Positions 11,979 to 52,340 of a stretch of 64,000 nt of DNA are shown in pieces. The DNA comes from Bryobacterales bacterium (GTDB taxonomy: Bacteria > Acidobacteriota > Terriglobia > Bryobacterales > UBA6623). The notes beneath the pieces are model-generated. The model was not told the origin of the DNA and searched no databases. It saw nothing but the letters and a program-made list of their open reading frames with translations. Each line of letters opens with the position of its first letter. Within the stretch, counting starts at the first letter, position 1. The translations under genes and the position numbers were made by a program. The stretch is from assembly GCA_965208945.1 (NCBI GenBank), contig OZ242366.1:2195827-2259826 (forward strand). Direction: 5' to 3'.

Positions 11979-12779
11979 CTAATATCCTAGCACCGCGATG
12001 TCGGCCTGATGGGCGGACCGGAGAGCTTCTTCCATGTCGACAAAAAGGGTCTTGCCGGCTTCGACGGCCAGGGCGGTGGCTTTGGCTTCGTGCATTTTCA
12101 GGAACGTCGTCAGACCGATGACGGGGACATCGAAACGCATGTCCTGATTGGGTTTTGCCATCTTGACGATGGTGAGCGGGCGGCCGTTGCTGAGGCCGCC
12201 GGCCCGGGTGATGACGTCATTGGTGCCCTCCATGGCCTCGACGGCGACGCAGGCGCGTTCGCAGATGGCGACGGTTTGGCCGATGTCGTAGCTCACCAGG
12301 GCGCGGGCGACTTCCTTTCCGTATTCGATGTCCGCCCATTCGTCAGCGGTGGGTGACCGCGACGTCAGGCAACCCTCTGTTGCGAGGAAAGGCTCCAGAA
12401 ACCGCGTCGAATCGATCAGGTGGATGTCTTCGTCTTCCAGGAATCCGGCGACGGCGCCGAGCAGCGAGTCGGTGTTTTTGCGCGGCAGCGAAGCAAGTAG
12501 CTTCAGCAGTTTCCAGTCGGGACGGATCGAAGAGTAGATCCGCGCATGACGCACGCGGCCTGCCATGACGGCTTCGGTGATTCCTTCGTTTTGGAAGACG
12601 CGGACGAGCTTGGTCAGTTCGCCGAGGGAAACCCAGTGACAGCGATTGACTTGCTCTTCGAGTTCCGGGTCGGCCTCTCCTTTGATCGCGACGGCGATGA
12701 CTTCGTGCCCTTGCTGCCGCGCTGAGGAAGCGACCAGCATCGGAAACCGGCCTCCTCCGGCGATCAGACCGAGCTTCAT
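11979..12779 (-). CDS. lpxI: UDP-2,3-diacylglucosamine diphosphatase LpxI (DUF1009)
   Basis: 266 aa starting MKLGLIAGGGRFP. ATGA overlap with the lpxA stop. The remainder of the 403-aa track ORF overlaps lpxA out of frame. Confidence 0.85.
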   Translation of the reverse strand: MKLGLIAGGGRFPMLVASSARQQGHEVIAVAIKGEADPELEEQVNRCHWVSLGELTKLVRVFQNEGITEAVMAGRVRHARIYSSIRPDWKLLKLLASLPRKNTDSLLGAVAGFLEDEDIHLIDSTRFLEPFLATEGCLTSRSPTADEWADIEYGKEVARALVSYDIGQTVAICERACVAVEAMEGTNDVITRAGGLSNGRPLTIVKMAKPNQDMRFDVPVIGLTTFLKMHEAKATALAVEAGKTLFVDMEEALRSAHQADIAVLGY

Positions 12780-13552
12780 TTGATGACGCCCCGTTTGGAC
12801 GAGGTGATGAAATCGAGCAATTGTTGGAGCGTCTCGTCCATCTCTTCTTCGCCACGGATCTTCTCGAGAGCCTGATCGGTGTTCAGATTTGACTTGGTCA
12901 GTCGCCGCAAGGCCTTGTGAAGCCGCTGAATGGACTCCTTGGAGAAGCCGCGGCGTTCCAGTCCGACCTTGTTGACCCCGAAGACTCGCGCGCTGCGGTC
13001 GGAGACGACCAGAGAGAACGGCATGACGTCTTGCGTGATGACGCTGTAGCCACCGATATAGCAATGCGCGCCGACGCGGCAGAACTGATGGACGCCGCTG
13101 TGGGCGCCGACGACGGCCCAGTCTTCGACGGTGACGTGTCCACCGAGCGTGGCGCTGTGGGCGAGGATGGTGTGGGAGCCTACATGGCAATCGTGGGCGA
13201 CGTGCGCGTAGGCCTGAAGCAGGTTGTCGTCGCCGAGCGAGGTGGTCCCGCCGCCGCCCTCTGTTCCGCGATGGATGGTGACGAATTCCCGGACGAGATT
13301 GCGGTGACCGATCTGTGTTTCGGTTCTCTCGCCGTGATACTTGAGGTCTTGTGGAGCGATGCCGACGGTGGAATAGGGCGAGAAGGTGTTGTCCTCGCCG
13401 ATGGTGATGGGGCCTTCAACGTAGACGTGGGCAAGGAGCCTGGTGCGGGCCCCGATTTCGACGTCAGGGCCGATGACGCAGAACGGGCCGATGTCCGCCG
13501 TTTCGTGGACGCGCGAGGCCGGATCGACGACTGCCGTTGGGTGTACCGCCAT
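12776..13552 (-). CDS. lpxA: Acyl-ACP--UDP-N-acetylglucosamine O-acyltransferase
   Basis: 258 aa. Hexapeptide-repeat left-handed beta-helix sequence with a typical LpxA C-terminal helical region. Confidence 0.92.
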   Translation of the reverse strand: MAVHPTAVVDPASRVHETADIGPFCVIGPDVEIGARTRLLAHVYVEGPITIGEDNTFSPYSTVGIAPQDLKYHGERTETQIGHRNLVREFVTIHRGTEGGGGTTSLGDDNLLQAYAHVAHDCHVGSHTILAHSATLGGHVTVEDWAVVGAHSGVHQFCRVGAHCYIGGYSVITQDVMPFSLVVSDRSARVFGVNKVGLERRGFSKESIQRLHKALRRLTKSNLNTDQALEKIRGEEEMDETLQQLLDFITSSKRGVIK

Positions 13553-13563
13553 GGCGGGCTCCG

Positions 13564-14064
13564 CTAAGACGCTGGGTCTTCTTTATTGGAGGCGGAACCT
13601 GCGTCGGCCGGTCGTGCGGTGGTGGTCTTGTCCGCAACGTGACACATCAGCACGGCGTCCGCCACCGGTTTGTCCTCGACCAGGGCGCGGGCGCTTACCT
13701 TCCAGACGTTACCCTTGCGCTTGAGGACTCCGAGCTCGATCCGGAGTTGGTCGCCGGGTAGAACGGGTTTTCGGAAGCGGGCTTTCTCGATGGCCGAGAA
13801 GAGTACGACCTTGTCCGCGAAGTTCTCGCCGCGCTTCGGCCCGCGGGTCAGCAGCAGAACGGCCCCGACCTGCGCCATGGATTCGATGATGAGGACGCCC
13901 GGCATGACCGGCAGTTCGGGAAAATGGCCCTGGAAGAACGGTTCGTTGGCGGTGACGTTCTTGATACCGACAATCCGGTCTTCCCCCATCTCTTCGATGC
14001 GGTCGACCAGCAGCAACGGATATCGGTGGGGCAGCACCGAAAGGATGTGATTGATGTCGTGCAT
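13564..14064 (-). CDS. fabZ: 3-hydroxyacyl-ACP dehydratase FabZ
   Basis: LPHRYPLLLVDRI and FFQGHFP motifs. The start could instead be 14112 (a 16-codon extension). Confidence 0.9.
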   Translation of the reverse strand: MHDINHILSVLPHRYPLLLVDRIEEMGEDRIVGIKNVTANEPFFQGHFPELPVMPGVLIIESMAQVGAVLLLTRGPKRGENFADKVVLFSAIEKARFRKPVLPGDQLRIELGVLKRKGNVWKVSARALVEDKPVADAVLMCHVADKTTTARPADAGSASNKEDPAS

Positions 14065-14181
14065 GGGAGCGAACCAGCGGGCCGCAGGCGGCGGTCGTTT
14101 CGTGTTCGCCAAGCGGGGGGTGGGGAGAGAGCAGGCTCATTGTACCAGAGGCTCGGCACGATACCATGGAACGATCAGCTT

Positions 14182-16182: not shown

Positions 16183-16259
16183 GACGGTTGCGCCATCGCA
16201 AGTGAAACCGCGGCGCGATGATAATCTTGTCTGCAAGCTAAGGATACCGGGAGGATGGC

Positions 16260-19068: not shown

Positions 19069-20193
19069 TTGAGCCGGATGGATTTCATGACAAGAGAAGA
19101 TGCGAATCGAATGCAATCATGCGTTATGCCGTTGAGAAAGTACAGGAAGTTCGTTCTTGCCGCCTTCTTGACCGGCTGGACGGTCAGTTGGGCGCAGACG
19201 CCGGCGCAGTGGAAGGCGCACGACATGGAGCGGCCGCGCCCGCCCAAGGTCACGCCGTCGCTGGCGCTTCCCGTTCCCCCGCCGTCGGACGCACAGGTGC
19301 TCTTTGACGGCAGCGGCCTTTCGAAGTGGCGCAGTCCGAACGGCGCGCCCGCCAAGTGGGTGTTGCGAGACGGCTATATGGAATCCGTGAAAGGCAGCGG
19401 CTACCTGTACACGGCGGACTCCTTCGGCGACGTCCAACTGCATGTCGAATGGGCCACGCCCACTCCGCCCGAGGGCAGGGGGCAGGGCCGCGGCAACAGC
19501 GGCGTTTTCCTCATGGGGCTGTACGAAGTGCAGGTGCTCGATTCCTATGACAACCATACCTACGCCGACGGACAAGCCGCCGCTGTCTACGGGCAGCATC
19601 CGCCGTTGGTGAACGCCAGCCGCCCGCCGGGTGAGTGGCAAAGCTATGACATCGTTTTCCGGCGTCCGCGCTTCAGCCGGGACGGTGCCTTGCTCAAAGC
19701 GGCGCGCATGACGGTGCTGCACAATGGCGTGCTGGTTCACGACAACGTCGAAATCTGGGGCGGCACGTCGTGGCTGCAGTACAATCCGTACAAGTCGCAC
19801 CCGGACCGCTTGCCGCTTTCGTTGCAGGACCACGGCAACCCGGTTCGCTACCGCAATATCTGGGTGAGGGAGCTGCCGGAATGGACCTCGGCGGGACCCG
19901 TAGACAAGCAGGCTGAGCCGGTGGTCTCTCTGGCGCCGTCCGTGCTGGAGCGCTATGTCGGCCGCTACCAGGATGCGACAGGCAGGAACATCATCATTGC
20001 CCGCGACGGCGCGAGCATGCGTGCCTCGATTCTGGGGCGCCCGAACCTCGATGTGCTGGTCCACTCGACGGAGGAGTTTTCTCTGCGTTGGACAGCGGGG
20101 CGCCTGGTGTTCGATCTCAATTCCCAAGGGGAGCCGGTGAGCGTGACTTTCCACATTGGCAGAGCCCGGTTTCCGGCGAAAAAGGTCGACTGA
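19069..20193 (+). CDS. DUF1080 (3-keto-disaccharide hydrolase-like) domain secreted protein
   Basis: Signal peptide KFVLAAFLTGWTVSWAQ. Blocks NSGVFLMG and LQDHGNPVRYRNIWVREL. The true start may be 19126. Confidence 0.8.
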   Translation: MSRMDFMTREDANRMQSCVMPLRKYRKFVLAAFLTGWTVSWAQTPAQWKAHDMERPRPPKVTPSLALPVPPPSDAQVLFDGSGLSKWRSPNGAPAKWVLRDGYMESVKGSGYLYTADSFGDVQLHVEWATPTPPEGRGQGRGNSGVFLMGLYEVQVLDSYDNHTYADGQAAAVYGQHPPLVNASRPPGEWQSYDIVFRRPRFSRDGALLKAARMTVLHNGVLVHDNVEIWGGTSWLQYNPYKSHPDRLPLSLQDHGNPVRYRNIWVRELPEWTSAGPVDKQAEPVVSLAPSVLERYVGRYQDATGRNIIIARDGASMRASILGRPNLDVLVHSTEEFSLRWTAGRLVFDLNSQGEPVSVTFHIGRARFPAKKVD

Positions 20194-20198
20194 CCTGG

Positions 20199-20373
20199 CC
20201 TGCTTTTCTCACCACGCGGCGAGGTGAAGTGCGTGAGAGGGCCGTCAGGACGAGGCGAGCCGCTTGGCGCGCGCAGGCGTACTTGAACAGTACGTTGAGC
20301 ACGGCAAGCAAGCGTAACGAAGTCCTGGCGGTCGTATCGCGTGCTTCGACCGTCAGGTGGTGAGAAATGCAGG
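20199..20373 (+). mobile_element. MITE copy C (short subfamily)
   Basis: TIRs present (the left one slightly degenerate, cctgcttttctcaccac). Flanks are CTGG and CTAG. Confidence 0.88.
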
Positions 20374-20579
20374 CTAGTCCCGCCCCCGCCCCGCTACGCG
20401 GTGCGGATCATTCGAGCAAGAAACATCCGGATCGGCGTCATGGCTGCTTGATTCGGACGATGTTTCAGGTCAGCGTTTCATTTCTTTTCTCTGAGAAACT
20501 GACAACGCCCGCAGGGGCTCTCGGCCCCAACCACTCACGCAAGCCGCCGATGTTCTATGATGTCCGTCGAAGATTCTGC

Positions 20580-21170
20580 ATGACGAAGACACTGATTGCG
20601 CTGCTTGGTTTGACTCTCGCTCCCTGGTTCGCGGCCGGCTCGGACATTGCGCCGGCGAAAGACCAGATCGCTTCGTCGATTCTCGCGGCGCCCGAGGATC
20701 GGCGAGCCGAAGCGGCCGTCTTGGGCTACAGCCCCGGCGGGAAGCTCGTCACTCTGCGCGAAGGTTCGAACGACCTCATCTGCCTCGCCGATGATCCCAG
20801 GAATGACAATTTCAGTGTCGCCTGCTATCACAAGGATCTGGAGCCGTACATGGCGCGAGGCCGTGAGCTGATCGCGCAAGGGATCACGGGCAAGCAGCGC
20901 AACGCCATTCGCTGGAAAGAGATCGCCGACGGCAAACTCGAGATGCCGCGGGAGGCGCGGGCGCTTTATGTCCTCACCGGCAGCGGGTTCGACGCCGCGG
21001 CGGGTGAAGTGACAGATCCCTATCTGCGCTGGGTCATCTACAAGCCGTATGCCACGCCGGAGTCGACGGGTCTTTCGACGACAGCTACGCCGGGTGGGCC
21101 CTGGCTGATGTCTGCCGGTACTGCCGGAGCGCACATCATGATCAACCCGCCGAAGCCCAACAAGAAGTAA
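20580..21170 (+). CDS. Hypothetical secreted protein
   Basis: Starts MTKTLIALLGLTLAPWFAAG (signal peptide). High third-position GC. No family recognised. The upstream part of the track ORF begins in the MITE terminus. Confidence 0.6.
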   Translation: MTKTLIALLGLTLAPWFAAGSDIAPAKDQIASSILAAPEDRRAEAAVLGYSPGGKLVTLREGSNDLICLADDPRNDNFSVACYHKDLEPYMARGRELIAQGITGKQRNAIRWKEIADGKLEMPREARALYVLTGSGFDAAAGEVTDPYLRWVIYKPYATPESTGLSTTATPGGPWLMSAGTAGAHIMINPPKPNKK

Positions 21171-21207
21171 GACTCCTCGGAGCTCGGAGCGCGCTGCAGG
21201 CTAGCCG

Positions 21208-22260
21208 CTACGAAGCTGTATTCGTCCTGCCGGACGCCAACTCGCGCAGTGATTCGACGTAAGGCGCCCGGGCCACTCCATGTTCGGTGATGATGGCGCT
21301 TACGTAGCGGTTCGGTGTCACATCGAACGCGGGATGCATCGCCGTCGTCCCGGGCGGTGCGACGGCCACGCCTTGGAGTTCCGTCACCTCGGCGGGACTG
21401 CGTTCCTCGATGGGGATGTCCTCCCCGGAGGCCAGCGAAAGATCAAGCGTAGAGATCGGGGCGGCAACGTAGAAGGGCACCCCGTTCTCTCTCGCAAGCA
21501 CGGCCACCGAGTAGGTGCCGATCTTGTTGGCGACATCGCCGTTGCCGGCGATGCGGTCAGCACCGACCACGACCGCGCTCACCTTGCCGCTGTGGAGCAG
21601 GTGTCCCGCCATGTTGTCGGTCAGCAGTGTGACCGGAATGCTGTCCTGCTGCAGTTCCCAAACCGTCAGCCGTGCGCCTTGCAGAAACGGACGGGTTTCG
21701 TTGGCGAGGACGGCAACGGAGTTGCCGCTCTCGATCGCCGCGCGGATCACCCCCAGCGCAGTGCCGTAGCCGCCGGTCGCGAGAGCGCCCGCGTTGCAGT
21801 GCGTCATGACCTGGGCGTTCGCGGGAAGCAACTCTGCCCCGTTACGGCCGATCGACTGGTTGATCGCGATGTCCTCCTCGAGAACTCGTTCGGCCTCGGT
21901 GGCCAACTCGTTGCGGATCGCGTTCACGCTTGCGCCGGCTGAACGCAGCTCTCGATAGCGCTTCTTCATCCTCTCGATGGCCCAGAACAGGTTGACGGCC
22001 GTCGGCCGTGTGCCGGCCAGGACCGAGCAGATCTCCTCCATCCGAGCATCGAGGTCCTCGGAGGAGGCCTGCTGGATTCCGATCGCCACACCCATTGCCG
22101 CGGCGACGCCGATCGCGGGCGCGCCCCGGATGATCATGCCGCGGATGGCGCCCGCGACTTCGAGGTAGTTCTTGCAGGTGATGTAGGTTTCTTCGGTGGG
22201 CAGCCGGGTCTGGTCAATCATCACGACGCCCTCAGGCGTCCATTCGATCGTTTTCACCAT
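21208..22260 (-). CDS. mtnA: S-methyl-5-thioribose-1-phosphate isomerase
   Basis: 350 aa starting [21 protein letters not shown]. eIF-2B alpha/beta/delta family blocks. The N-terminal extension in the track ORF is MITE D sequence. Confidence 0.9.
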
Positions 22261-22284
22261 GGAGGGAAGCGGGGTGTCCTTTAG

Positions 22285-22485
22285 CCTGTATTTCTCACCA
22301 CGCGGCGAGGCGAAGTGCGTGAGAGGGCCGTCAGGACGAGGCGCAAGCCGGGCGGAGGAAAAAGGCGCGAGCCGCTTGGCGCGCGCAGGCGTACTTGAAC
22401 CGTACGTTGAGCACGGCAAGCAAGCGCAACGAAGTCCTGGTGCTCGTATCGTGTGCTTCGACCGTTGGGTGGTGAGAAATGCAGG
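22285..22485 (+). mobile_element. MITE copy D (long subfamily, 201 bp)
   Basis: Flanked by a direct TTAG...TTAG (22281-22284 and 22486-22489). Contains the extra segment aagccgggcggaggaaaaaggcgcg. Confidence 0.9.
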
Positions 22486-23265
22486 TTAGAGCCTTTCGAG
22501 TTGTTCGCCCGCCACGGCAAAGGCGGCGAAAAGAGTTGCATTGTAGCTGGCGTGAACCAGGGTCGACGGCAGGATCGAACCGGTTCGAGCGCGCAATGTG
22601 CCGAACACGACCCCTACGCCCAGCAGCAGCAGCAGGTTCTGCCATCGCCAGCCGTACTGCGTGCCGTGTACCAGTGAGAACAGGGCGCTCGTGGCGAAGA
22701 CCGCGAAGCCCGCCCCTCGGGAGCGCTCGAATACGGGGAACAGGAAGCCCCGAAAGAAAGTCTCTTCCAATACCGGGGCGAAAAGGATGCCGAAGACGGC
22801 GAGTAGGGCCATCACCAGCGGGTCTTCGAGAAGGATTTCGAGAGGCAGTTTCTCGTCCACCTGCGGCAGCAGCATTGAGACGAGAACCACGCTAATGGCG
22901 AGAAAAGGACCCGTGGCCAGGTATTGAACGGGTGAGCCCTCATAGCGGACCCAGCCGATCGAAGGCCCGAATCGCAAGCGGTACTTGACGGCAACGATCA
23001 GATAGATGAATGCGAAGACCGCGGCCCAGAGCAACATCGAAATCGCCACATTCAGAGGTCCCTGCACGCGCGGCTCTTCCAGGTTGACCTCCCAATCGAA
23101 CACGAATCCCATCCCATAGAGGCACCCGACGGCGATCACCGAGAGCATGAACAGGGCAATCACCCCAAAGACAAGCAGGTAGAGAAGATCGAGATATCCC
23201 CAGGTTTCCGGTTGCTCGGGGTCGTCTGGAGGCAAGAGCGGGGGTGGCTCGCTGGGGTGTTCCAT
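22486..23265 (-). CDS. CPBP family intramembrane glutamic endopeptidase (CAAX protease-like)
   Basis: Motifs EETFFRGF, SLVHG, HASYN. The stop TAA lies inside the TTAG flank of MITE D. An alternative start at 23292 uses the ATG in the MITE E1 terminus. Confidence 0.85.
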   Translation of the reverse strand: MEHPSEPPPLLPPDDPEQPETWGYLDLLYLLVFGVIALFMLSVIAVGCLYGMGFVFDWEVNLEEPRVQGPLNVAISMLLWAAVFAFIYLIVAVKYRLRFGPSIGWVRYEGSPVQYLATGPFLAISVVLVSMLLPQVDEKLPLEILLEDPLVMALLAVFGILFAPVLEETFFRGFLFPVFERSRGAGFAVFATSALFSLVHGTQYGWRWQNLLLLLGVGVVFGTLRARTGSILPSTLVHASYNATLFAAFAVAGEQLERL

Positions 23266-23285
23266 CGGCGAGCGCCGGTCGCTAG

Positions 23286-23666
23286 CCTGCATGTCTCACC
23301 ACGTGGCGAGGCGAAGTGGGTGAGAGGACCGTCAGGACTAGCCTGCATGTCTCACCACGCGGCGAGGTGAAGTGCGTGAGAGGGCCGTCAGGACGAGGCG
23401 CGAGCCGCTTGGCGCGCGCAGGCGTACTTGACAGTACGTTGAGCACGGCAAGCAAGCGCAACGAAGTCCTGGCGGTCGTATCGCGTGCTTCGGCCGTCGG
23501 GTGGTGAGAAATGCAGGCTAGGCGCAAGCCGGGCGGAGGAAAAAGGCGCGAGCCGCTTGGCGCGCGCAGGCGTACTTGAACAGTACGTTGAGTACGGCAA
23601 GCAAACGCAACGAAGTCCTGGCGGTCGTATGGCGTGCTTCGACCGTCGGGTGGTGAGAAATGCAGG
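23286..23666 (+). mobile_element. MITE copy E1 (long subfamily) carrying nested copy E2
   Basis: E1 is interrupted after gtcaggac by E2. E1 sequence resumes at 23522 with gcgcaagccggg. Confidence 0.88.
23342..23517 (+). mobile_element. MITE copy E2 (short subfamily) nested in E1
   Basis: Complete TIRs, with CTAG on both sides (23338-23341 and 23518-23521). Confidence 0.88.
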
Positions 23667-23783
23667 CTGGGGTTGTCCGGTCGCAAAGTATCCATCGTAA
23701 CGCGGAATGGAGGCGTCAAAGCCCGTAGTGGCCTCGTTTTCGACGTCCGTGAGGTTTCTGAGGTCAGGCCGGATAATGGGGCT

Positions 23784-24317
23784 ATGACCCACCACGAGAC
23801 CTGTGTTCATGACTTCATTTGCATCAGCCGTCACCAGCTTCGCGAGCGGCTGCGGCGGATTGAGCTTTGCATCGGTAAGCTCGGCGACGAGCAACTCTGG
23901 GCGCGGAATCACGAAAAAGAGAACGCCGTCGGCAACTTGATTCTCCACTTGGCAGGCAATATCCGGCAGTGGATCGTCAGTGGCGTCGGCGGCGGGACGG
24001 ATGCTCGTGATCGTGACTCGGAATTTTCTCGCCGCGAACCGCTCGACCGCGGGGAGTTGATTCTCCGATTGCGCCAGGCGATCGACGAGGCGGACCGCGT
24101 GCTCGCCTCCGTCACGACCGCACAGCTAGCCCGGAAGAGGAAGATTCAAGTGTACGAAGTGACCGGGCTGCACGCGGTCTATCATGCCGTCGAGCACTTT
24201 GCTGAGCACACGGGCCAGATCATCTGGGTCACAAAGCGGCTCACTGGTGAAGATCTGAAGATCTACGGCTATCTTGACAAGCAAGGCGGAAAAGATCGAC
24301 GCGAGCTGATGCCCTGA
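23784..24317 (+). CDS. DinB/DUF1572 family protein
   Basis: Starts MTHHETC. Four-helix DinB-like His pattern (LHLAGN, HAVEHFAEHTGQI). Confidence 0.8.
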   Translation: MTHHETCVHDFICISRHQLRERLRRIELCIGKLGDEQLWARNHEKENAVGNLILHLAGNIRQWIVSGVGGGTDARDRDSEFSRREPLDRGELILRLRQAIDEADRVLASVTTAQLARKRKIQVYEVTGLHAVYHAVEHFAEHTGQIIWVTKRLTGEDLKIYGYLDKQGGKDRRELMP

Positions 24318-24386
24318 TGTGAAACCCCATGATCCTCGCCGCGGATAGGTCGAAACAAGGCCGGTGCGACGGTACGGAAGAGTTAG

Positions 24387-24420
24387 CCTGCATTTCTCAC
24401 CACGTCGTTACACAGGCAGG
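24387..24420. mobile_element. Mini-MITE F (34 bp)
   Basis: Sequence cctgcatttctcaccacgtcgttacacaggcagg flanked by TTAG and CTAA. The right flank holds the stop codon of the 24421-24912 gene. Confidence 0.7.
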
Positions 24421-24912
24421 CTAATCCGAGGCTTGCCGCGAGCGCAACGCCTTGTGGAGCAACCCCAGCCCGGCGGTGATCAGCAACAAAGGCCAGAGCC
24501 GATGGATCGAGGCGTTGAACCAGCCCAACTCTTGAAACTGGAAAATCACGCCGAGCAACAATACGATCGTTCCCGGCGTCCAGTCAAACTCTTGCCGGAC
24601 TTTCTTGCTCGCCAACAGGTTGATTCCAACGGCGATCAGGATCAATGGCCAGAACGCCAATAGGTCATGGAATCGCAAAGCGTCCAGATTGACGGCCTGA
24701 AGGCCGATCCCCAAGCAGATCGTGGCGATGCCAAACGCTCGGGATCTCGGGTCCAGAGCCCAATGCACGCCGGCCGCGATCAAGATTAACGGCCAATAGA
24801 GCCACAGGTCCCAGAGCCGCAGGACATCGAAATTGTGAAGCAGGAACAACACTCCCAGAGCCAGGACGACAAGGCCCGGGATGAAGCCTTTCGCTGAAGG
24901 GAATGACTTCAT
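24421..24912 (-). CDS. Membrane protein with repeated LiaF/DUF5668-like TM hairpins
   Basis: 163 aa. Three repeats of LWPLILIAxG-type TM segments. Confidence 0.7.
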   Translation of the reverse strand: MKSFPSAKGFIPGLVVLALGVLFLLHNFDVLRLWDLWLYWPLILIAAGVHWALDPRSRAFGIATICLGIGLQAVNLDALRFHDLLAFWPLILIAVGINLLASKKVRQEFDWTPGTIVLLLGVIFQFQELGWFNASIHRLWPLLLITAGLGLLHKALRSRQASD

Positions 24913-24926
24913 GGTCCGTTCCGCGA

Positions 24927-26162: not shown

Positions 26163-26402
26163 GGTCGCCTGATTATAACGGGCGGAGTGTAGCGGCTTGT
26201 CTCCGTCGAGGTCGGGAAGCAGAGAGAAAAAGGCGTCCGGTTACGGCAATCGCCGTCTCCGTTCCCGGCAAGGCGAACCTGCTGCGTCACGCTGCGGCAG
26301 GCGCCCGTGACGGCCGAAGTGGCCGCTGTTTCCTCTCGAAGCCTGGTCTGGGTTTTCGAAAACCGCTCCGGTCGGCGGGAGACTCCAACCCGCGGTCAAC
26401 CC

Positions 26403-27068: not shown

Positions 27069-27243
27069 AATCGTTTACCGACACCGTGCCCCTTCGGAGG
27101 CCCGGACAGTTGCAGCGAACGCTTGGATCACGTTCGCTGCAGATTCAAAATCGCCCGTTTCTCCGTTCGAAGCAGGTACCAGTCTCCGGCATTTTGATTT
27201 AGGAATGTTCTGCTGCCGAGAAGACGCGTGCGTCTCAGGCTAG

Positions 27244-27419
27244 CCTGCATTTCTCACCACGCGGCGAGGCGAAGTGCGTGAGAGGGCCGTCAGGACGAGG
27301 CGCGCGCCGCTTGGCGCGCGCAGGCGTACTTGACGGTACGTTGAGCACGGCAAGCAAGCGCAACGAAGTCCTGGCGGTCATATCGTGTGCTTCGACCGTC
27401 GAGTGGTGAGAAATGCAGG
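27244..27419 (+). mobile_element. MITE copy G1 (short subfamily)
   Basis: TIRs present, with CTAG on both flanks (27240-27243 and 27420-27423). Confidence 0.9.
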
Positions 27420-27515
27420 CTAGAGCTTTCAGTGCACCCGGAATCGGTCCAAGAAAATAGCTAATGTAACACATTCCGAAAACCGCAAGTGCATTGAACC
27501 ACGGTGCGTTTCTAG

Positions 27516-27692
27516 CCTGCATTTCTCACCACGTGGCGAGGCGAAGTGGGTGAGAGGGCCGTCAGGACGAGGCGCGCGCCGCTTGGCGCGCGCAGGCGTA
27601 CTTGAACAGTACGTTGAGCACGGCAAGCAAGCGCAACGAAGTCATGACGGTCATATGGCGTGCTTCGACCGTCGGGTGGTGAGAAATGCGGG
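27516..27692 (+). mobile_element. MITE copy G2 (short subfamily)
   Basis: TIRs present. Flanks are CTAG and CTAA. Separated from G1 by an 88-bp AT-richer spacer. Confidence 0.9.
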
Positions 27693-27840
27693 CTAAGCGG
27701 CTGCGGGCTGGCGGCGCGGGCATCGCACTGCGCCGGGGAACATTCCGCGAGACGAGACCTCGCTCGACGTCAACACCCCCGCTGGTGCAGGCCTGCATCG
27801 TGCCCGTCCCAGCGCGGCATCGACAACGACTTCTGAGAGA

Positions 27841-28173: not shown

Positions 28174-28192
28174 CATGGCCGCGTGATCGGCT

Positions 28193-29197: not shown

Positions 29198-29225
29198 TGC
29201 AGTGGACCTGAGAGAACGTGAGCTG

Positions 29226-29412
29226 ACCTGTATTCTCACCACGAGGCGAGGCGAAGTGGGTGAGAGGGCCGACAGGACGAGGCGCGGGCCGGGCGGAGGA
29301 AAAAGGCGCGTGCAACATGGCTTTTAAAGGTTTTTACGAATCACGAGTCACGAAACACGAATCACGGCCTTTTTATCGCGTGCTTCGACCGTCGGGTAGT
29401 GAGAAATGCAGG
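29226..29412 (+). mobile_element. MITE copy H (heptad-bearing variant)
   Basis: Normal left arm and right TIR. The centre is replaced by ggcttttaaaggttttt plus an (A/T)CACGAR heptad array. Flanks are CTGA and TCAG. Confidence 0.85.
29334..29368. repeat. Heptad tandem repeat (W)CACGAR x5 inside MITE H
   Basis: Units read ttacgaa tcacgag tcacgaa acacgaa tcacggc. Confidence 0.85.
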
Positions 29413-29552
29413 TCAGAGCGGCTGCGATCATAACGTGCCGGACAGACTGGGTCAAGCGCCGCGGACACTTCCAAATGGAGTCGACTCGCCTTTGCGGTCC
29501 GATTTTGTTGATCTTTCCCCGAGAATGAGAGATTCTATGTAGTTTTCCTTTG

Positions 29553-30509: not shown

Positions 30510-30645
30510 ACCCCTGGATCGCCCGGAACACGAACTACCGATTCTGGAGCATCGAAGCGCTCCGTCCGCGCAGAGAAAACAATCGGGATCAACGGGCCGA
30601 TCGACGAACAGGCGCTGGCAATCTGTCGGGTGTTCCGGGCTGGCC

Positions 30646-31056: not shown

Positions 31057-31059
31057 GAT

Positions 31060-31341: not shown

Positions 31342-31353
31342 CTTCCATCCGTG

Positions 31354-31377: not shown

Positions 31378-31548
31378 CCCAAGGACCCTTGTGGCAGTCG
31401 CACCCGGAGCCGTCCGGTTCCACCGTGCTTGTGGGGCAGAACAGCGGGCTGTTTTGGAGTCCTTGGCCTCTGTACAGGCGTTGAAGCGTTGCGCTGAACC
31501 AACTTCCTGCCGAAGACCAGGCCGCCGGAACTTCGACTGCCGGTCTAG

Positions 31549-31749
31549 CCTGCATTTCTAACCACGTGGCGAGGCGAAGTGGGTGAGAGGGCCGTCAGGA
31601 CTAGGCGCAAGCCGGGCGGAGGAAAAAGGCGCGAGCCGCTTGGCGCGCGCAGGCGTACTTGAACCGTACGTTGAGCACGGCAAGCAAGCGCAACGAAGTC
31701 CTGGCGGTCGTATCGCGTGCTTCGACCGTTGGGTGGTGAGAAATACAGG
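31549..31749 (+). mobile_element. MITE copy I (long subfamily) with an unoccupied internal CTAG
   Basis: Flanks are CTAG and TCAG. Internal sequence gtcaggactaggcgcaag is the empty form of the site occupied in E1 and K. Confidence 0.9.
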
Positions 31750-31760
31750 TCAGGCGGTCT

Positions 31761-33077: not shown

Positions 33078-33170
33078 CGGATGTGAAACATCCTCCTGAT
33101 CAAGCGGCGTTGACGCCGATCCGGGTGTAGCCCGCTTGAACGATCCGACCACGAGCAGAGGAAAAACGGG
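33078..33170. repeat. X-module copy X1 (second short repeat family)
   Basis: Sequence gaaacatcctcctgatcaagcggcgttgac...cccgcttgaacgatcc..cacgagc..aaaaac. Similar to 44705-44803 and 34291-34416. Confidence 0.7.
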
Positions 33171-33237
33171 CCTGCATGTCTCGCCATGTGGCAAAGAGAA
33201 GTCCGTTCGCATCACGAATCAGGGCTTTCAAGTTTTT

Positions 33238-33269
33238 CACTAGCCACTGGCCACTAATCACTATCCACT
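33238..33269. repeat. CACTNNN x5 tandem heptads
   Basis: Units read cact agc cact ggc cact aat cact atc cact. Confidence 0.85.
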
Positions 33270-33282
33270 GCTTTTTTGCTTT

Positions 33283-33310
33283 TCACGAAACACGAGACCC
33301 GAAACACGGC
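33283..33310. repeat. Heptad tandem repeat (W)CACGAR x4
   Basis: Units read tcacgaa acacgag acccgaa acacggc. Confidence 0.8.
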
Positions 33311-33625
33311 CTTTTCTGTGGCTCGTTTGGTGCCCGTTGGTACTGAAGCCCTTCAGTCTTTTTTTCGGCCGGGGGACGGTTTAGGTTGAAAGTGATAACG
33401 CCGTTGTTGGGAACGAAAACCCCATCCGCGCCCGTCGGGGCCACAAGTCGGGTGGGGACGGAAGAGCCGCCCGGTCGCTACTTACCTGCGCGTTGTGGCG
33501 CGGCATGGGGCGGTTATGGCGCGGAATGGGCGGCCGCCGTCCCCCGCGCTGGCAACACGGCCTTTCCTGTTCACCAGACGTCAGATATTTCTTCTGGAGC
33601 GAACCAAGCCCCCCAACCATGGTTT

Positions 33626-33667
33626 TCACGAAACACGAAACACGAGACACGAGGCACGAATCACAGC
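33626..33667. repeat. Heptad tandem repeat (W)CACGAR x6
   Basis: Units read tcacgaa acacgaa acacgag acacgag gcacgaa tcacagc. Confidence 0.85.
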
Positions 33668-33680
33668 TTCCCTACCCACG

Positions 33681-33720
33681 ATTTCCCACCATTTCCCACG
33701 ATTTCCCGGCATTTCCCGGG
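33681..33720. repeat. 10-bp phased repeat ATTTCCCNNN x4
   Basis: Units read atttcccacc atttcccacg atttcccggc atttcccggg, with an exact 10-bp period. Confidence 0.9.
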
Positions 33721-33918
33721 CCCCCCACCCCCTCTCCGCCGATCAAGTGTCCACGAGCCGTCCGCCTTTCTTGGTCAGCCGCCCGGGACTGCCGCCCCCG
33801 CCCGGTCGCTGCTTTCCTGGGCGTTGTGGCGCGGCATGGGGCGGCTATGGCGCGGCATGGGGTGCCCCGAGCCACTGTTCACGCACCATCCTCACCAGCA
33901 ACATAACCATTCGGGTTT

Positions 33919-33953
33919 TCACGAAACACGAGACACGACACACGAATCACGGC
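33919..33953. repeat. Heptad tandem repeat (W)CACGAR x5
   Basis: Units read tcacgaa acacgag acacgac acacgaa tcacggc. Confidence 0.85.
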
Positions 33954-34290
33954 TTTTTTTCACATGCTGCGACCGTCGGGTGGTGAGAAATGCAGGCTAA
34001 CGCCCTGCTCGACGATCTGGTGGCTCAACAGCCGGCGGAAAAACGGACTAAGCGCGTCAGTCGGCAAGCCCGCAGGCTTCAAAGGGGCATGTACGAAGCG
34101 CGGGAAAACGAGTGGAAAGGACTTTTTCCGAATCCCGATTCGGTTCAAGATTCGGAATTCCCCACAATTCGTCACAATTCGTCGGAAAGATTCGGATAAG
34201 CACCTGCCGCCCATCAAGCGCCCCCGCGCACTGCGGCAACCGGGACATCGGCTTCATGGATGCATCGCGTCCCCGCCTGACCTTCCCTGG

Positions 34291-41299: not shown

Positions 41300-41337
41300 G
41301 CGGCACTGATCGCAGGCGGTCAACGACCCTGGCTCCC

Positions 41338-41533
41338 CACGCTTGGCGCGCGCAGGTGTACTTGATCGTACATCGAGCACGGCAAGCAAGCGCAACGTAG
41401 TCATGGCGGTCGTATCGCCTCCTTCGGCCCTCGGGTTACGAGACACGCAACACGGCCTTTAAGGTTTTTTACGAAACACGAAACACGGCCGTTTTATCGC
41501 GTGTTCCGGCCGTCATGTGGTGAGAAATGCAGG
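41338..41533 (+). mobile_element. MITE copy L (left arm missing; heptad-bearing right part)
   Basis: Begins within the gcttggcgcgcgcagg centre and ends in gtggtgagaaatgcagg plus CTAG. Contains two heptad arrays at 41436-41489. Confidence 0.8.
41436..41489. repeat. Two (W)CACGMR heptad arrays separated by ctttaaggtttt
   Basis: Units read ttacgag acacgca acacggc ... ttacgaa acacgaa acacggc. Confidence 0.8.
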
Positions 41534-41559
41534 CTAGCCCCCCCGACTCCCATCTCATC

Positions 41560-43648: not shown

Positions 43649-44704
43649 ATGCACCGAATAGGCTTATCCGCGGTTGTGATACTGCTGGTCGCGTTAGCAG
43701 CCGGCCTAACTGCTTCCGAGCGCTATGTTGCTGTGGACAACGTCTGCGCCTGGCCGAACCTGACGGTCTTGCCGAATGGGGACTTGACGGCCGCGATCTT
43801 CAACCACCCAAGTCACGGTCTTGCCGAGGGCGACGTGGAGGTATGGGCGAGTTCGGATGGAGGCAAGCTCTGGGAGCTTCGCGGCGCCGCTACCACGCAC
43901 GACACGGGAACGAACCGCATGAACGTCGCGGCCGGCCTGGCTCACAACGGGGATCTGGTCGTGCTCGCATCGGGCTGGGGTGGGGCTGGTTTCCGCAGGA
44001 AGATCCTGCCGGTGATGGTGAATCGTTCTTCTGACGGCGGCCGGACCTGGCAGCGCTCGTTCGACGTCGAGCTCCCCGGCGGGCTTTCTTACCTCATTCC
44101 CTTCGGTGACATCGTCTTGATGGAGAGCGGCATGTTGGCGGCGCCCTTCTATCAGGAGGACCGCGACTTGTCGTCCGGCAAGCGCCCGCAGGTAAGCAAG
44201 GGCAGCGCCTACCTCCTTTTCAGCAAGGACGACGGGCGGACCTGGGGAGACGGCGTTGTTCTCGCACGCGGCGATTACAACGAGACGTCCGTCCTGAGGA
44301 TTCGCCCCGATCGCTGGTTGGCGGCGGTGCGGACCTATCGAGACGGGCACCTCGAGCTTTTTGAATCGAGCAATGAAGGGAAGACCTGGAAGAATGCCGG
44401 GCCCCTCACGCTGCCCAGCCATCATCCGGCCCACCTGCTTCAACTCGATGACGGCCGCATCCTGCTGACCTACGGCATCCGCGAGAAAGGCCACCAGGGA
44501 GTGGGGATGCGCATCAGCGAGGACGAAGGGAAGACCTGGAAAGCTCCGACGCGAGTCGTCAACCTTGAAGGCACCACCGACGGCGGCTATCCTTCCACGG
44601 TCCAGCTTCCGGACGGCAGCCTTCTCACGGCCTACTACAGCAACGGCATTCCCCAACACCGCCGCTACCACATGGGAGTGGTCCGCTGGACGTTGTCTGA
44701 CTGA
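43649..44704 (+). CDS. BNR/Asp-box repeat protein (sialidase-like glycoside hydrolase fold)
   Basis: Five Asp-box-like motifs: SSDGGKLW, SSDGGRTW, SKDDGRTW, SNEGKTW, SEDEGKTW. Confidence 0.8.
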   Translation: MHRIGLSAVVILLVALAAGLTASERYVAVDNVCAWPNLTVLPNGDLTAAIFNHPSHGLAEGDVEVWASSDGGKLWELRGAATTHDTGTNRMNVAAGLAHNGDLVVLASGWGGAGFRRKILPVMVNRSSDGGRTWQRSFDVELPGGLSYLIPFGDIVLMESGMLAAPFYQEDRDLSSGKRPQVSKGSAYLLFSKDDGRTWGDGVVLARGDYNETSVLRIRPDRWLAAVRTYRDGHLELFESSNEGKTWKNAGPLTLPSHHPAHLLQLDDGRILLTYGIREKGHQGVGMRISEDEGKTWKAPTRVVNLEGTTDGGYPSTVQLPDGSLLTAYYSNGIPQHRRYHMGVVRWTLSD

Positions 44705-44803
44705 CCTGAAACATCCTCCTGATCAAGGGGCAGCGGACACCCATCCGGATGTTTCCGGATTGAATGATCCACAGACGAGCGGAGGAAAAACTGGCATAGC
44801 AGG
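44705..44803. mobile_element. X-family small element X2 (99 bp)
   Basis: Begins cctgaaacatcctcctgatcaag immediately after the TGA stop of the BNR gene. Ends ggcatagcagg. Separated from MITE M by cgag. Confidence 0.65.
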
Positions 44804-44807
44804 CGAG

Positions 44808-44984
44808 CCTGCATGTCTCACCACGCGGCTAGGTGAAGTGCGTGAGAGGGTCGTTAGGACGAGGCGAGCGCCGCTTGGCGCGCACAGGCGTACTTGAACA
44901 GTACGTCGAGCACGGCGAGCAAGCACAACAAAGTGATGGCGGTCGTATCGCGTGCTTCGGCCGTCGGAAGCTGAGAAATGCAGG
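44808..44984 (+). mobile_element. MITE copy M (short subfamily)
   Basis: The right flank CTAA (44985-44988) contains the stop codon (TAG on the minus strand) of the aldo/keto reductase gene. Confidence 0.88.
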
Positions 44985-45950
44985 CTAACTGCCCTGATAC
45001 TCGTGTCTGCGCCGGCCTTCGAGCGCCGTGCGCGCGTCGCGCTTCCAGTCTTCCAGGTCGGGGCCGGCAAGCTCTGCGGCTCTCCCGCGCAGCTCGGCCA
45101 TCACATCCCTGTTGTACTGCGAGAACTGCTGCGCGATGCGGACATCGTCTTCGATCTGACCGATCGTCGTGCATCCGACCGCGAGGCAATGGATCGGAAG
45201 GCTCAGCACGTAGTTGATGCATTGCCCGACCCCGAATGACTGGAGCAGCTTCGAGTTGGCCGTGCTCTTCATGCCCTGGATGCCCAGGTTCTGCTTTTGG
45301 GCTTCCGGCAGCACCTTCTGTTCGAAGCTCAAATACGACGGATCGGCTGGATTGAGCGGCATCAGGATCGTGTCGAAGTCCTTGTAAAGCCGCAGCATCT
45401 CGAGATGGGCTTCCGGATCGTGATGCCCGGTAAAACCGATGTAGCGGCATTTGCCCGCTTTCTTTGCCGCCTCGAAAGCTTCGATCGCACCGCCGGGAGC
45501 GAAGATGGCTTTGAGGTCCTCATCTGACTTGACGGAGTGAATCTGCCACAGATCGAGATAGTCGGTCTTGAGTCTCTTCAGCGACTTGTGTAGTTCTTCC
45601 TCGGCTTCCTTGCGGGTTCGCTTCACGCTCTTCGTGGTCAGGAAGACCTCCTTGCGGACATCCTCGAGCGCTTCGCCGTAGACCACCTCGGAGCGGCCGT
45701 TCCAGTAGCTGTGTGCATTGTCGAAGTAGTTGAGCCCGAGTTCATAGGAGCGGCGCGTGATGGCCTTGGCCTGATCGAACGTGCAAAGCGGAAAACGCCC
45801 ACCGGCTTGTCCGACGAGCGTGAGTTTCTCGCCGGTCTTGCCGAACGTCCTTTTCGGTACGTCACCGGCTTTCAGGCGGCTCGCCCGGGTACTGCCCGCC
45901 GCGATGCTCAACCCCGCAACAGCACTGCCGAAGAAGCTGCGTCGTTTCAT
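44985..45950 (-). CDS. Aldo/keto reductase, Tat-type signal
   Basis: Starts MKRRSFFGSAVAGLSIAAG. AKR blocks (YFDNAHSY, GFTGHH). Confidence 0.88.
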   Translation of the reverse strand: MKRRSFFGSAVAGLSIAAGSTRASRLKAGDVPKRTFGKTGEKLTLVGQAGGRFPLCTFDQAKAITRRSYELGLNYFDNAHSYWNGRSEVVYGEALEDVRKEVFLTTKSVKRTRKEAEEELHKSLKRLKTDYLDLWQIHSVKSDEDLKAIFAPGGAIEAFEAAKKAGKCRYIGFTGHHDPEAHLEMLRLYKDFDTILMPLNPADPSYLSFEQKVLPEAQKQNLGIQGMKSTANSKLLQSFGVGQCINYVLSLPIHCLAVGCTTIGQIEDDVRIAQQFSQYNRDVMAELRGRAAELAGPDLEDWKRDARTALEGRRRHEYQGS

Positions 45951-50512: not shown

Positions 50513-50533
50513 GAAGTTTATAATTGAGACGCC

Positions 50534-51016
50534 TTGTCATACCTCGAGTGGCTTGAGAACTCACTGACGGACAAGCTCGAAGAGCAGCCGGTCGGAGAGC
50601 CTGTCGCCCTTCGCGCCTACCTGGAGCTGAGCGACGATCACGGGCACCTGGTTCCGACCGCCGGGGCGATGGCGGCTGTCGCAGGCGCTTGGTTCGGTGC
50701 GGGATTGCCCAAGGTCTATGCTCTCGGCGGAGCCGACCAGGGATACGTTTCGGTCACCGCGACGTATCCTGGCGGACAGACCGCTCTGATCGTCGCCGAG
50801 TCCTTGAGCGCAGCCGCCGGTGAGCGGCCCTCCGTGCGTCTCTTGCTGATCGGCAACCATGGCACGATGGAGTTCGCTGATTCGCCGGGTGCGGATTTCC
50901 GCACGGTCGATCGAACGCCGCCTGCCGGCGCGAGCAGCGAGGCTCTGAGCCGGGCGATAGCTGAGTCGCTCCGGTCCAGCGCCCCCGTGGAAGGGAGCAC
51001 GCACAGCCGTGGCTAG
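50534..51016 (+). CDS. Hypothetical protein (resembles a Gfo/Idh/MocA C-terminal-type domain)
   Basis: 160-aa ORF with a TTG start. Its stop TAG lies inside the left CTAG flank of MITE N. Start and function are uncertain. Confidence 0.45.
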   Translation: MSYLEWLENSLTDKLEEQPVGEPVALRAYLELSDDHGHLVPTAGAMAAVAGAWFGAGLPKVYALGGADQGYVSVTATYPGGQTALIVAESLSAAAGERPSVRLLLIGNHGTMEFADSPGADFRTVDRTPPAGASSEALSRAIAESLRSSAPVEGSTHSRG

Positions 51017-51192
51017 CCTGCATATCTCCCCGCGTGGGGACGTGAAGTGCGTGAGAGGGCCGTCAGGACGAGGCGCGCGCCGCTTGGCGCGCGCAGGCGT
51101 ACTTGATCGTACATCGAGTACGGCAAGCAAGCGCAACAAAGTTATGGCGGCCGTATCGCGTGCTTCGGGTGTCAGGCGGTGAGATATGCAGG
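51017..51192 (+). mobile_element. MITE copy N (short subfamily, variant centre gtacttgatcgtacatcgag)
   Basis: Flanks are CTAG and CTAA. The ATG in the right TIR (51186) opens the downstream ORF. Confidence 0.88.
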
Positions 51193-52340
51193 CTAAACCT
51201 TCGTTCGGCGTTCTGCTCGTAACGGGCGGGATGACCCACCAGGAGAACTACGGAGAGGGATTCCTCGCCGACCCGCGCGCAAGAGTCGTCGGCCTTACCG
51301 ATGAACCCGATGTCGACGAACGCCGCGACCGCCTGAACCGCGGATTGGCCGATCAGTTCGGCATCCCCTTCCTGCCGGATATCCGCGAGGCGCTCGCGCG
51401 GTCCGATGTGCACCTCGTCTCCGTCTGCTCGGAGTTCGAGCGGCGCACCCGCGTCTCTCAAATCTGTGCGGAAGCCGGCAAGCATCTCTACGTCGACAAG
51501 CCCATGGTGACGAAGATGGCGGAGGCCGACAAACTCGTGGCGACAGCCGGGCGGCGTGGTTTGCGCGGGCAGATGTTCACTCAGGTCGGCGCGCCGTACG
51601 CGAGGCGGCTGAAAGGAATCGTCGATTCCGGTGCTTTGGGCGAGATCAAGTCGATCCAGTGTGACCTCATGTTCGCGAAGGGTTTCACCGGCGGCGCTCC
51701 GCTTGGCGTGCCGCGGCGCGAGCACGATCCGCCCAGGCGGTTCACGTTCCCGGACGCCAAGCGTGAGATCTGGACGACCGCGGTCTATTCGCTCACCTTG
51801 ATCCGCTGGCTCCTCGGCGGACCCCGCTTTCGTAGCGTCTACGCCACGAGCGCCAACTACTTTTTCGAGGAGCACTACAAACGCGATGTCGAGGACTTCG
51901 GCACGCTTGCTCTCACGCTCGACAACGGCGTCACGGCGTCGCTGATCGCCGGCCGGATCGGTTGGCACAGTCACCGCAGTTCCGGCCCGAACTTCACGCG
52001 CATCATCGGTAGCAAGCGCAGCTTCCTTCTTGACGCGCACAGCCCGCGCTTCGAAATCTCGTCCGACCGAAAGTGGGCGCCGCCGGCGAAGGACCCCATC
52101 GATCCCATGGGCTTCTGGTCGAGCACCATGGAGCGTGGGAACGCTCAACCCAAGCCCTTTTGGCATGAGCCGCCGACCGCGCCCGGGCAATCGGATCAGG
52201 CTCTCTTCCTCGATTGCCTCGAACAGGACAAAGAGCCGGAAGTCACGCTGGACGATGCCGCGCAGGCATCCGAGGCCATGCTGGCCGCCTACCGGTCCGC
52301 TGCGACAGGGCAGGTGGTGGCGTTGCCTCTGCCGCGCTAG
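51186..52340 (+). CDS. Gfo/Idh/MocA family oxidoreductase
   Basis: 384 aa. Rossmann beta1 plus Gly-rich loop FGVLLVTGG begins at codon 7. The only in-frame start after the upstream TGA (51179-51181) is the ATG inside the MITE N terminus. The stop TAG lies in the CTAG flank of MITE K. Confidence 0.8.
   Translation: MQAKPSFGVLLVTGGMTHQENYGEGFLADPRARVVGLTDEPDVDERRDRLNRGLADQFGIPFLPDIREALARSDVHLVSVCSEFERRTRVSQICAEAGKHLYVDKPMVTKMAEADKLVATAGRRGLRGQMFTQVGAPYARRLKGIVDSGALGEIKSIQCDLMFAKGFTGGAPLGVPRREHDPPRRFTFPDAKREIWTTAVYSLTLIRWLLGGPRFRSVYATSANYFFEEHYKRDVEDFGTLALTLDNGVTASLIAGRIGWHSHRSSGPNFTRIIGSKRSFLLDAHSPRFEISSDRKWAPPAKDPIDPMGFWSSTMERGNAQPKPFWHEPPTAPGQSDQALFLDCLEQDKEPEVTLDDAAQASEAMLAAYRSAATGQVVALPLPR

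Follow-up and report, generated by a model that had tools for sequence, protein, structure and literature searches.

Insertion sequences (IS) of the IS1380 family, as described in ISfinder, carry one transposase open reading frame (ORF), are about 1.6–2 kb long, have ends that begin with CC and are flanked by direct repeats of 4–5 bp. Among short bacterial repeats, the Correia, ERIC and REP-type families are abundant, hairpin-forming and mostly extragenic, lie near gene ends and are co-transcribed with genes. The present study concerns a 64,000-nt stretch of DNA from a Bryobacterales bacterium (contig OZ242366.1 of assembly GCA_965208945.1, positions 2,195,827 to 2,259,826; hereafter the window) and a transposable element of the miniature inverted-repeat class (MITE) found there in about 19 copies, for which an earlier note had claimed that the 4-bp flank coincides with the stop codon of the adjacent gene in seven cases. 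IS1380 transposases are known as prokaryotic relatives of, and outgroup to, the piggyBac transposases (PMC10140906; PMC10813416), and MITEPsy1 of Pseudomonas syringae, which derives from the IS5-family element ISPsy2, has CTAG or YTAA as its target and produces 4-nt duplications (PMC3189936). The passages of that paper on stop codons and target sites describe neither a stop-codon association nor a start codon in the repeat, and the element as presented there differs from ours in its parent family, its inverted repeats (GGAAGGTCTGAAAAAGCC) and its length of 100 nt. Comparable questions have been discussed for a Coxiella MITE (PMC5896051). Our literature search retrieved the YTAR-targeting MITEPsy1 and the outgroup position of IS1380, and no description of the present element or of its stop-codon association. 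Compared with the Correia, ERIC and REP-type repeats, the position of our MITE at stop codons is explained by its target motif, and any role at the RNA level would be hypothetical.

The stop-codon pattern is real and well explained, and the MITE represents a new, very dense, IS1380-derived family. We put at roughly 85% the probability that this high-copy element arose from an IS1380-family insertion sequence and that the scarcity of its YTAR target sites, combined with purifying selection, gives the pattern. According to this explanation, a transposase acting in trans would insert the MITE at YTAR, most often at CTAG, then at TTAG or CTAA and then at TTAA, with duplication of the 4 bp. TAG or TAA makes a YTAR site whenever a pyrimidine stands before it, so stop codons would form about a quarter of the pre-insertion YTAR sites. 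Insertions into coding YTAR sites would be removed by selection, the survivors would lie partly at intergenic YTAR sites and partly at stop codons, and at the latter the gene-proximal copy of the duplication would keep the stop in frame and leave the protein unchanged.

The element proper is non-coding and measures about 177 nt; variant forms are 201 and 34 nt long. It begins with CCTGCATTTCTCACCAC and finishes with GTGGTGAGAAATGCAGG, its outermost bases being CC...GG, and these ends are perfect terminal inverted repeats of 17–20 nt. Two termini resembling the right end of the IS1380-type element enclose an unrelated, largely self-complementary core. Copies in the window, which are numbered E1 to E19 and lie in plus orientation except for E1, were located by repeat finding, inverted-repeat search and BLAST with the reference full-length copy E11 (27512..27695; element proper 27516–27692, CCTGCATTTCTCACCAC...GTGGTGAGAAATGCGGG), which is intergenic and has CTAG/CTAA flanks. 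Their density is about one per 3.4 kb. When genome contigs were searched for the 18-nt repeat, at least 80 loci (prefixed L below) were obtained, and window plus 56 Bryobacterales loci, 491 kb in all, held 144 insertion events. Identity to the consensus was at least 80% in 50 of 57 full-length copies, which were kept for the analysis of pairing.

For six genes the stop codon is exactly the last three bases, in the direction of the gene, of a 4-bp flank, and all coordinates in the earlier note proved correct. Gene identities were taken from Pfam. Four of these genes lie on the minus strand. The stop of lpxI is the reverse complement of CTA at 11979–11981, within the CTAA (11979–11982) that forms the right flank of the full-length copy E3 (11798..11982), and that of a CPBP/Rce1-like protease is the reverse complement of TTA at 22486–22488 (TAA), within the TTAG on the right of E5, a 201-nt variant (22281..22489) with a perfect TTAG/TTAG duplication. 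The stop of a LiaI/LiaF-like protein, the reverse complement of CTA at 24421–24423, belongs to the right flank of E9 (24383..24424), a mini copy of 34 nt made of the two inverted repeats only and flanked by TTAG/CTAA, and the stop of an aldo/keto reductase (44985–44987) to the right flank of the full-length copy E16 (44804..44988; flanks CGAG/CTAA), which the related contig L086 also carries. On the plus strand, the TAG at 51014–51016 of ORF 50534–51016 lies in the left CTAG of the full-length copy E17 (51013..51196), and the TAG at 52338–52340 of a GFO/IDH/MocA oxidoreductase (51186–52340) in the left CTAG of E18 (52337..55714), an outer MITE into which elements of the IS1380 and IS110 families have inserted. 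The seventh case, a BNR protein, keeps its adjacency, since its TGA at 44702–44704 lies within a repeat flank, but the flank is a CTGA and the repeat, X2, is a different one.

One frame in three that enters the element meets TAG at once, and the six stops could in principle be artefacts of ORF prediction, the insertions having truncated longer genes and the flank merely closing whichever frame ran into it. Against such truncation, Pfam matches extend to the last residues of three of the proteins: LpxI_C reaches profile position 130 of 131 at residue 400 of 403, GFO_IDH_MocA_C reaches 218 of 218 at residue 380 of 384, and LiaF-TM reaches 96 of 98. Element-free orthologues have the same C-terminus and length, the orthologues of the oxidoreductase all finishing in ...ALPLPR as does the window protein and those of the 160-aa ORF 50534–51016 measuring 159–160 aa, and no gene remnants occur beyond the far side of the elements. 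Empty sites complete this evidence. E17 is missing in L082, L083, L086 and L087, where the site reads GTGGCTAGCC (...CCGTGG CTAG CCGG...), and the gene pair that it split had overlapped by 8 nt (empty site GTGGCTAG); the more distant L085 shows the same overlapping junction (ATGGCTAG) and no MITE. For E18, the empty site in L082 is CGCGCTAGCCAGC (...CCGCG CTAG CCAGC...). The matches to the last residues, the orthologue ends and lengths and the empty sites therefore identify the stops as native, and truncation is scarcely credible. The two empty sites also bear out the proposal that the target duplication regenerates the stop, as both show insertion into a CTAG holding the native stop, with the frame kept.

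The nature of the duplication was examined in 100 paired copies from the window and 81 fetched loci. Perfect 4-nt pairs comprised CTAG/CTAG (28), TTAG/TTAG (5), TTAA/TTAA (4) and CTAA/CTAA (1), and many pairs showed single transitions in the TA. The perfect non-CTAG pairs are spread over different subfamilies, and the element therefore makes a true 4-bp duplication of YTAR and ends in CC..GG; the empty sites hold a single CTAG. These perfect TTAA, TTAG and CTAA pairs led us to reject a model in which only TA is duplicated. IS630 elements duplicate the TA within CTAG. If the MITE were of IS630/Tc1-mariner type with a preference for CTAG, and if its outermost bases were G and C, this would fit the almost invariable YTAG on the left and CTAR on the right, and the G and C that stay beside the element in mismatched pairs. 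Such an origin is nevertheless highly improbable given the perfect non-CTAG pairs and a partner insertion sequence that belongs to the IS1380 and not to the IS630 family, and whose relatives carry CC..GG ends and CTAG flanks; neither a 2-bp TA duplication nor an IS630-type partner was found.

Mismatched flanks vary at their outer base, and their inner base is, with few exceptions, G (left flank) or C (right flank): there are 8 CTAG..CTAA pairs, 3 TTAG..CTAG pairs and 1 TTAG..CTAA pair, with 0–2 pairs of the reverse kind. By our tally of the 100 pairs, the base that touches the element is donor-like G or C at 14 mismatched positions and not at 2. In a recent insertion in L086 (5322/5500), the left flank is CGAG, as in the empty site, and the right flank is CTAG. 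These asymmetric flanks match the classes that a piggyBac-type mechanism, in which the excised element keeps the 4-nt flank of the donor as a 5' overhang and this overhang pairs with the gap in the target, would be expected to produce; conversion between copies, co-conversion of flanks or mutation are alternatives.

The candidate autonomous partner lies in the window itself, inserted in the internal CTAG of E18 (52397..54120, plus strand; transposase 52436–53899). It is 1724 bp long, has a single ORF of 487 aa and ends in CC..GG (CCCGGAAATCTCACCAG ... CTGGTGAGAAATGCAGG). Its transposase matches PF13701 with 489.7 bits and the NCBIfam model NF033539 with 383.8 bits (cut-off 180), which places it in the IS1380 family. 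A second copy in another context, in L001, again stands between CTAG and CTAG, so that the site is present on both sides in two contexts. The right inverted repeat of the window insertion sequence agrees with that of the MITE at 16 of 17 positions, the similarity running for about 46 nt, and ends and CTAG target thus both match those of the MITE, which differs from IS1380-family insertion sequences in lacking a transposase and in measuring 177 nt. The MITE would accordingly be a candidate for mobilisation in trans by this insertion sequence. Of the annotated relatives that we found, the nearest encodes WP_034018616.1, which has 56% protein identity to the window transposase, and lies on plasmid pKF715A of Pseudomonas putida and on a Stutzerimonas megaplasmid. 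In both plasmids it has the ends CCCGCATTTCTCACAG...CTGTGAGAAATGCGGG and CTAG on both sides, and it has in common with the window element the inverted repeat CCYGCATTTCTCAC, ends that begin with CC and the CTAG flanks; both the repeat and the target therefore characterise this IS1380 clade. The likeness extends to eukaryotic piggyBac, with its distantly related transposase, 4-bp duplication of a TA-centred palindrome and CC..GG ends. The piggyBac target is TTAA, whereas that of the MITE is relaxed to YTAR (TTAA included) with preference for CTAG, and the precise excision and overhang chemistry of piggyBac are for the MITE hinted at only through the asymmetry of its flanks.

Placement at random would give about 0.03 exact stop hits for 17 insertion events in 64 kb, and 6 were observed. 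When insertion is confined to YTAR, our arithmetic gives 4.1 hits over all pre-insertion YTAR sites and 7.4 over non-coding ones, and the motif alone thus predicts the stop hits. The sites are scarce, as the earlier note had supposed, with 87 in the window and about 550 expected from base composition (about six-fold depletion), and CTAG is under-represented (35 against 217 expected), 24 of the 35 being created by or lying inside elements. The claimed concentration at stop codons also holds, since 16 of about 67 pre-insertion YTAR sites, about a quarter, are stops. On curated genes, the pre-insertion sites of the window are occupied in 0 of about 30 coding cases, 6 of 16 at stops and 11 of 21 in intergenic DNA (Fisher tests: p=0.51 for stop against intergenic sites and p=6e-6 for non-coding against coding sites), so that about 45% of non-coding YTAR sites carry an insertion.

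Similar results were obtained for the window and the 56 related loci, where genes were predicted from codon usage. Ninety-five predicted genes read into an element and stop within −300 to +120 nt of it; 25 of them stop exactly in the flank, 20 of these in the related loci, and no other offset exceeds 3. The 144 insertion events include 25 at predicted stops, 97 in intergenic DNA and 10 in sequence called coding, with 57, 284 and 288 unoccupied sites in the three classes, respectively. Occupancy of stop and intergenic sites is equal (odds ratio 1.28, p=0.41), and that of non-coding sites exceeds that of coding sites (odds ratio 10, p=7e-19). Insertions are therefore enriched at stops relative to all YTAR sites, the comparison suggested in the earlier note, because they are nearly absent from coding sequence, and they are not enriched there beyond non-coding YTAR. 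Purifying selection presumably causes the absence from coding sequence. About a third of the window copies lie on stops as a consequence of the YTAR preference and not of stop-seeking or terminator function. The YTAR-scarcity logic of the note is essentially upheld, and the transposon family and its duplication are now defined.

Active targeting of stops or gene 3' ends by the transposase or a host factor, beyond recognition of YTAR, would also yield the sharp spike of 25 genes that stop exactly in the flank and the 17–35% of insertion events found at stops, and a few flanks read CTGA or TCAG, with TGA serving as the stop. We consider such targeting very unlikely. Stop and intergenic YTAR sites are occupied equally, insertions are also found at CTAG within other MITEs and beside start codons, and the change from CTAA to CTGA needs a single transition and keeps the stop.

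Several points weigh against the explanation by target motif and selection. The related loci were picked because they carry the element and do not form a whole-genome census. Their genes were called with our own simple codon-usage predictor, so that their numbers are approximate; the predictor makes visible errors in the window, for example at about 10.7–11.7 kb and at fabZ, and the intergenic YTAR class is probably inflated by missed genes. The link between insertion sequence and MITE consists of end similarity and a common target, no transposition having been observed. In addition, the CTAG..CTAA and TTAG..CTAG pairs do not fit a simple fill-in duplication, and the L086 insertion at CGAG, outside YTAR, indicates that the specificity is not absolute.

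If the explanation by motif and selection is right, a target motif alone can let a transposon saturate a compact, high-G+C genome, its copies landing on stops, in start regions and at operon junctions without destroying genes. A family so dense and recently active offers natural data on the target choice of the IS1380 family and perhaps on the chemistry that links it to piggyBac.

The earlier note had further suggested that the element places a strong hairpin where a terminator or a structure stabilising the mRNA would sit. The hairpin itself is confirmed, the RNA of E11 folding with −112.8 kcal/mol (z=−10) and that of the other strand with −90.4 kcal/mol (z=−8.4). Correia and ERIC MITEs and REP elements affect mRNA stability, and recruitment by the host as a 3'-end module (terminator, stabilising hairpin or RNase III site), with the stop copies kept by selection, would have precedent in them as well as agreeing with the great stability of the fold on both strands. 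For Coxiella QMITE2, a role as RNase III substrate has been proposed but not demonstrated (PMC5896051). Double-sided changes in the stem mostly keep pairing (21 vs 2 outside the flank columns), which would suit a conserved RNA structure; with about 96% identity among the copies, however, such changes are not independent and tell little, and these counts may reflect subfamily inheritance or correction of a quasipalindrome at the DNA level.

The proposed role finds no support in the sequence. A scan of 12 kb (20000–32000) gave no terminator-like site with a T-tract and no promoter-like site in any element, and the hairpin is followed by CTAG and unrelated sequence without the U-tract of an intrinsic terminator. 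There is no orientation bias relative to the neighbouring genes (7 vs 11), no match to any Rfam 15 family anywhere in the window, and no higher occupancy of stops than of intergenic YTAR sites. Moreover, half of the six copies that overlap a stop occupy tight junctions (−8 nt for E17, about 15 nt for E5 and about 30 nt for E3 before insertion) with intact co-directional genes downstream, on which a strong terminator would be polar. Selection of the stop copies as 3'-end modules is thus unlikely; some effect on RNA processing or stability may nonetheless occur.

Each inverted repeat, read outward, ends in ...GGTGAGAAATGCAGG followed by CTAG, and so contains a GGTGA resembling a Shine-Dalgarno (SD) sequence, 3 nt and an ATG. 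Three comparative cases suggest that this site can replace start codons hit by an insertion, the new protein beginning with Met-Gln-Ala. The oxidoreductase of the window starts at the ATG of the right repeat of E17 (51186–51188) and reads MQAKPSFGV, whereas its orthologues have MA(K/S/R)(P/R)PFGV; no other start precedes its Rossmann motif, and the left flank of E17 still holds the previous GTG start. A copy in L039 (reverse complement, about 650–850) lies in codons 2–3 of the orthologue of window gene 58205–59257 and gives MQASDRHRLIQG in place of MATDRHRLIQG, and a copy in L086 (5320–5510) in a DUF1501 gene gives MQASRRRFL compared with MFDSSRRRFLK in the window, the twin-arginine motif being kept. 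All three lie in the single workable frame. General use of the repeat ATG was rejected, as long coding ORFs leave the element in the ATG frame in 18 cases and in the +1 frame in 25, and its use is therefore occasional. ORF 41527–43638, which opens at the repeat ATG of the partial copies E15 (41331..41537; right flank CTAG; ATG at 41527), was rejected as a further case, since its orthologues start at the in-frame GTG 41560, 11 codons downstream. For annotation, it is relevant that genes beside elements acquire TAG stops, that in some of them the repeat comes to encode a Met-Gln-Ala N-terminus, and that gene callers may over-extend a start into the repeat (41527) or miss a repeat start (the L086 DUF1501 gene). 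Directly past the right end of E17, where the coding sequence of the oxidoreductase now has its 5' end, five substitutions fall within 11 nt (window 51193–51203 vs L086 17030–17040; CTAAACCTTCG vs CTAGCCGGCCG) in strains that are otherwise about 97% identical.

These starts invite a more ambitious and tentative proposal, to which we give rather little weight, namely that the element is a module compatible with gene boundaries, offering the target stop upstream, an SD-ATG downstream and translational coupling between them, and is moved by a piggyBac-like transposase that carries over the donor flank. A ribosome terminating at the 5' foot of the stem would melt it and expose the SD-ATG in the 3' arm, and coupling across the insertion would be re-created in this way, as at E17; a 4-nt donor flank borne on 5' overhangs and joined without repair synthesis would explain the asymmetric flanks and the CGAG/CTAG pair of L086. 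The interest of the stop-codon pattern would rise if either the coupling or the piggyBac-like chemistry were true.

The host is a sponge-associated acidobacterium. Its window has a G+C content of 63% and genes (DUF1501, BNR_2, 3-keto-disaccharide hydrolase, GFO/IDH/MocA) typical of Bryobacterales or Solibacter-like Acidobacteriota, and L039, from the sponge-derived metagenome-assembled genome (MAG) Bryobacterales APA_bin_29, is 91–96% identical to the window over 57.5–64 kb. The metagenome contigs L086 and L088 show 96–98% identity over window 34–57 kb and 12–22 kb, and therefore represent the same species. Copies are polymorphic among these strains: E17, E2 and E4 are missing in related strains, and L086 and L039 have one extra copy each. 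The internally deleted E2 (11678..11801), which sits at the left flank of E3, is missing in the 92%-identical L089, where the CTAG..CTAA copy corresponding to E3 is present. The full-length copy E4 (20195..20377; flanks CTGG/CTAG), 1 nt past the TGA of gene 19069–20193, is missing in L088. At that site (L088 7880–7895 vs window 20195–20480) both E4 and a neighbouring X2 are lacking and CTGG plus CCTG are kept. In L086 (18172–18253 vs window 52337–55760), the right half of E18 and about 50 nt of flank are deleted, and the stop flank reads CTGA, with TGA as the stop.

The remaining window copies comprise further full-length, variant and nested elements. E1 (4798..4982, minus orientation) is full-length and intergenic with CTAG/CTAG flanks, and E10 (27240..27423), with the same flanks, is a full-length copy between divergent genes. 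Copies nest in one another at internal CTAG sites: the outer 201-nt-type element E6/E8 (23282..23671) is split by the full-length E7 (23338..23521; GGA CTAG, E7, CTAG GCG), and the uninterrupted form of this site, GGACTAGGCG, is present in E13, a 201-nt variant (31545..31753; flanks CTAG/TCAG) that lies 8 nt off the stop of gene 31761–33017 without overlapping it. In E18 it is this same internal CTAG that the IS1380-family element occupies. E12 (29220..29416; flanks CTGA/TCAG) is a divergent variant with 71% identity to the reference. In the composite region E14 (33167..34000), MITE-like ends bound an unrelated repetitive interior, with CACGAAACACGA runs and a 69-nt unit duplicated at 33467 and 33798.

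The mini copy E19 (58102..58143), of 34 nt plus CTAG flanks, abuts the start codon of gene 57523–58101 and is kept at the orthologous site in L039. Such two-repeat forms of 34 nt with YTAR flanks occur in the window at 24387–24420 (E9) and 58106–58139 (E19), and in relatives at L006 5458–5491, L039 7408–7441 and L061 3379–3412; they either stem from hairpin deletions that happened repeatedly or constitute a mobile form of minimal size.

Among the matches listed, loci with the 18-nt repeat were mostly in Bryobacterales MAGs, with single matches in MAGs of several other phyla. The exact repeat was seen under the labels Verrucomicrobiota, Planctomycetota/Singulisphaera, Gammaproteobacteria, Thermoanaerobaculia, Dehalococcoidia, KSB1, Rhodothermales and Deltaproteobacteria (L004, L005, L014, L019, L023–L025, L036, L037, L042, L043, L045, L049–L051 and L053), and some of these copies differ in internal sequence. 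It may be that the IS clade has spread horizontally or that contigs were assigned to the wrong bins.

The separate repeat X2 is about 95 nt long (TGAAACATCCTCCTGATCAAGCGG...GGAGGAAAAA). The copy beside the BNR gene lies at 44701..44803 on the plus strand, its left flank CTGA containing the stop, and further window copies are at 33084–33166 and, on the minus strand, 20402–20477; at least 15 more were present in 13 fetched loci. Of the X2 copies found, about two thirds have CTGA in front of them. In most cases CTGA adjoins the repeat on one side and CTAG or CTGA on the other, and it often lies directly beside a MITE end. The order of its internal complementary segments is interleaved, as in a pseudoknot, and the repeat has no Rfam match. 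Besides the IS1380-family element, E18 carries an IS110-family element in its apical loop (54181..55619, plus strand; transposase 54114/54186–55355), inserted between GTACTT and GAACAGTAC. This insertion, present as one copy in the data examined, recalls the targeting of QMITE2 by IS1111 in Coxiella (PMC5896051).

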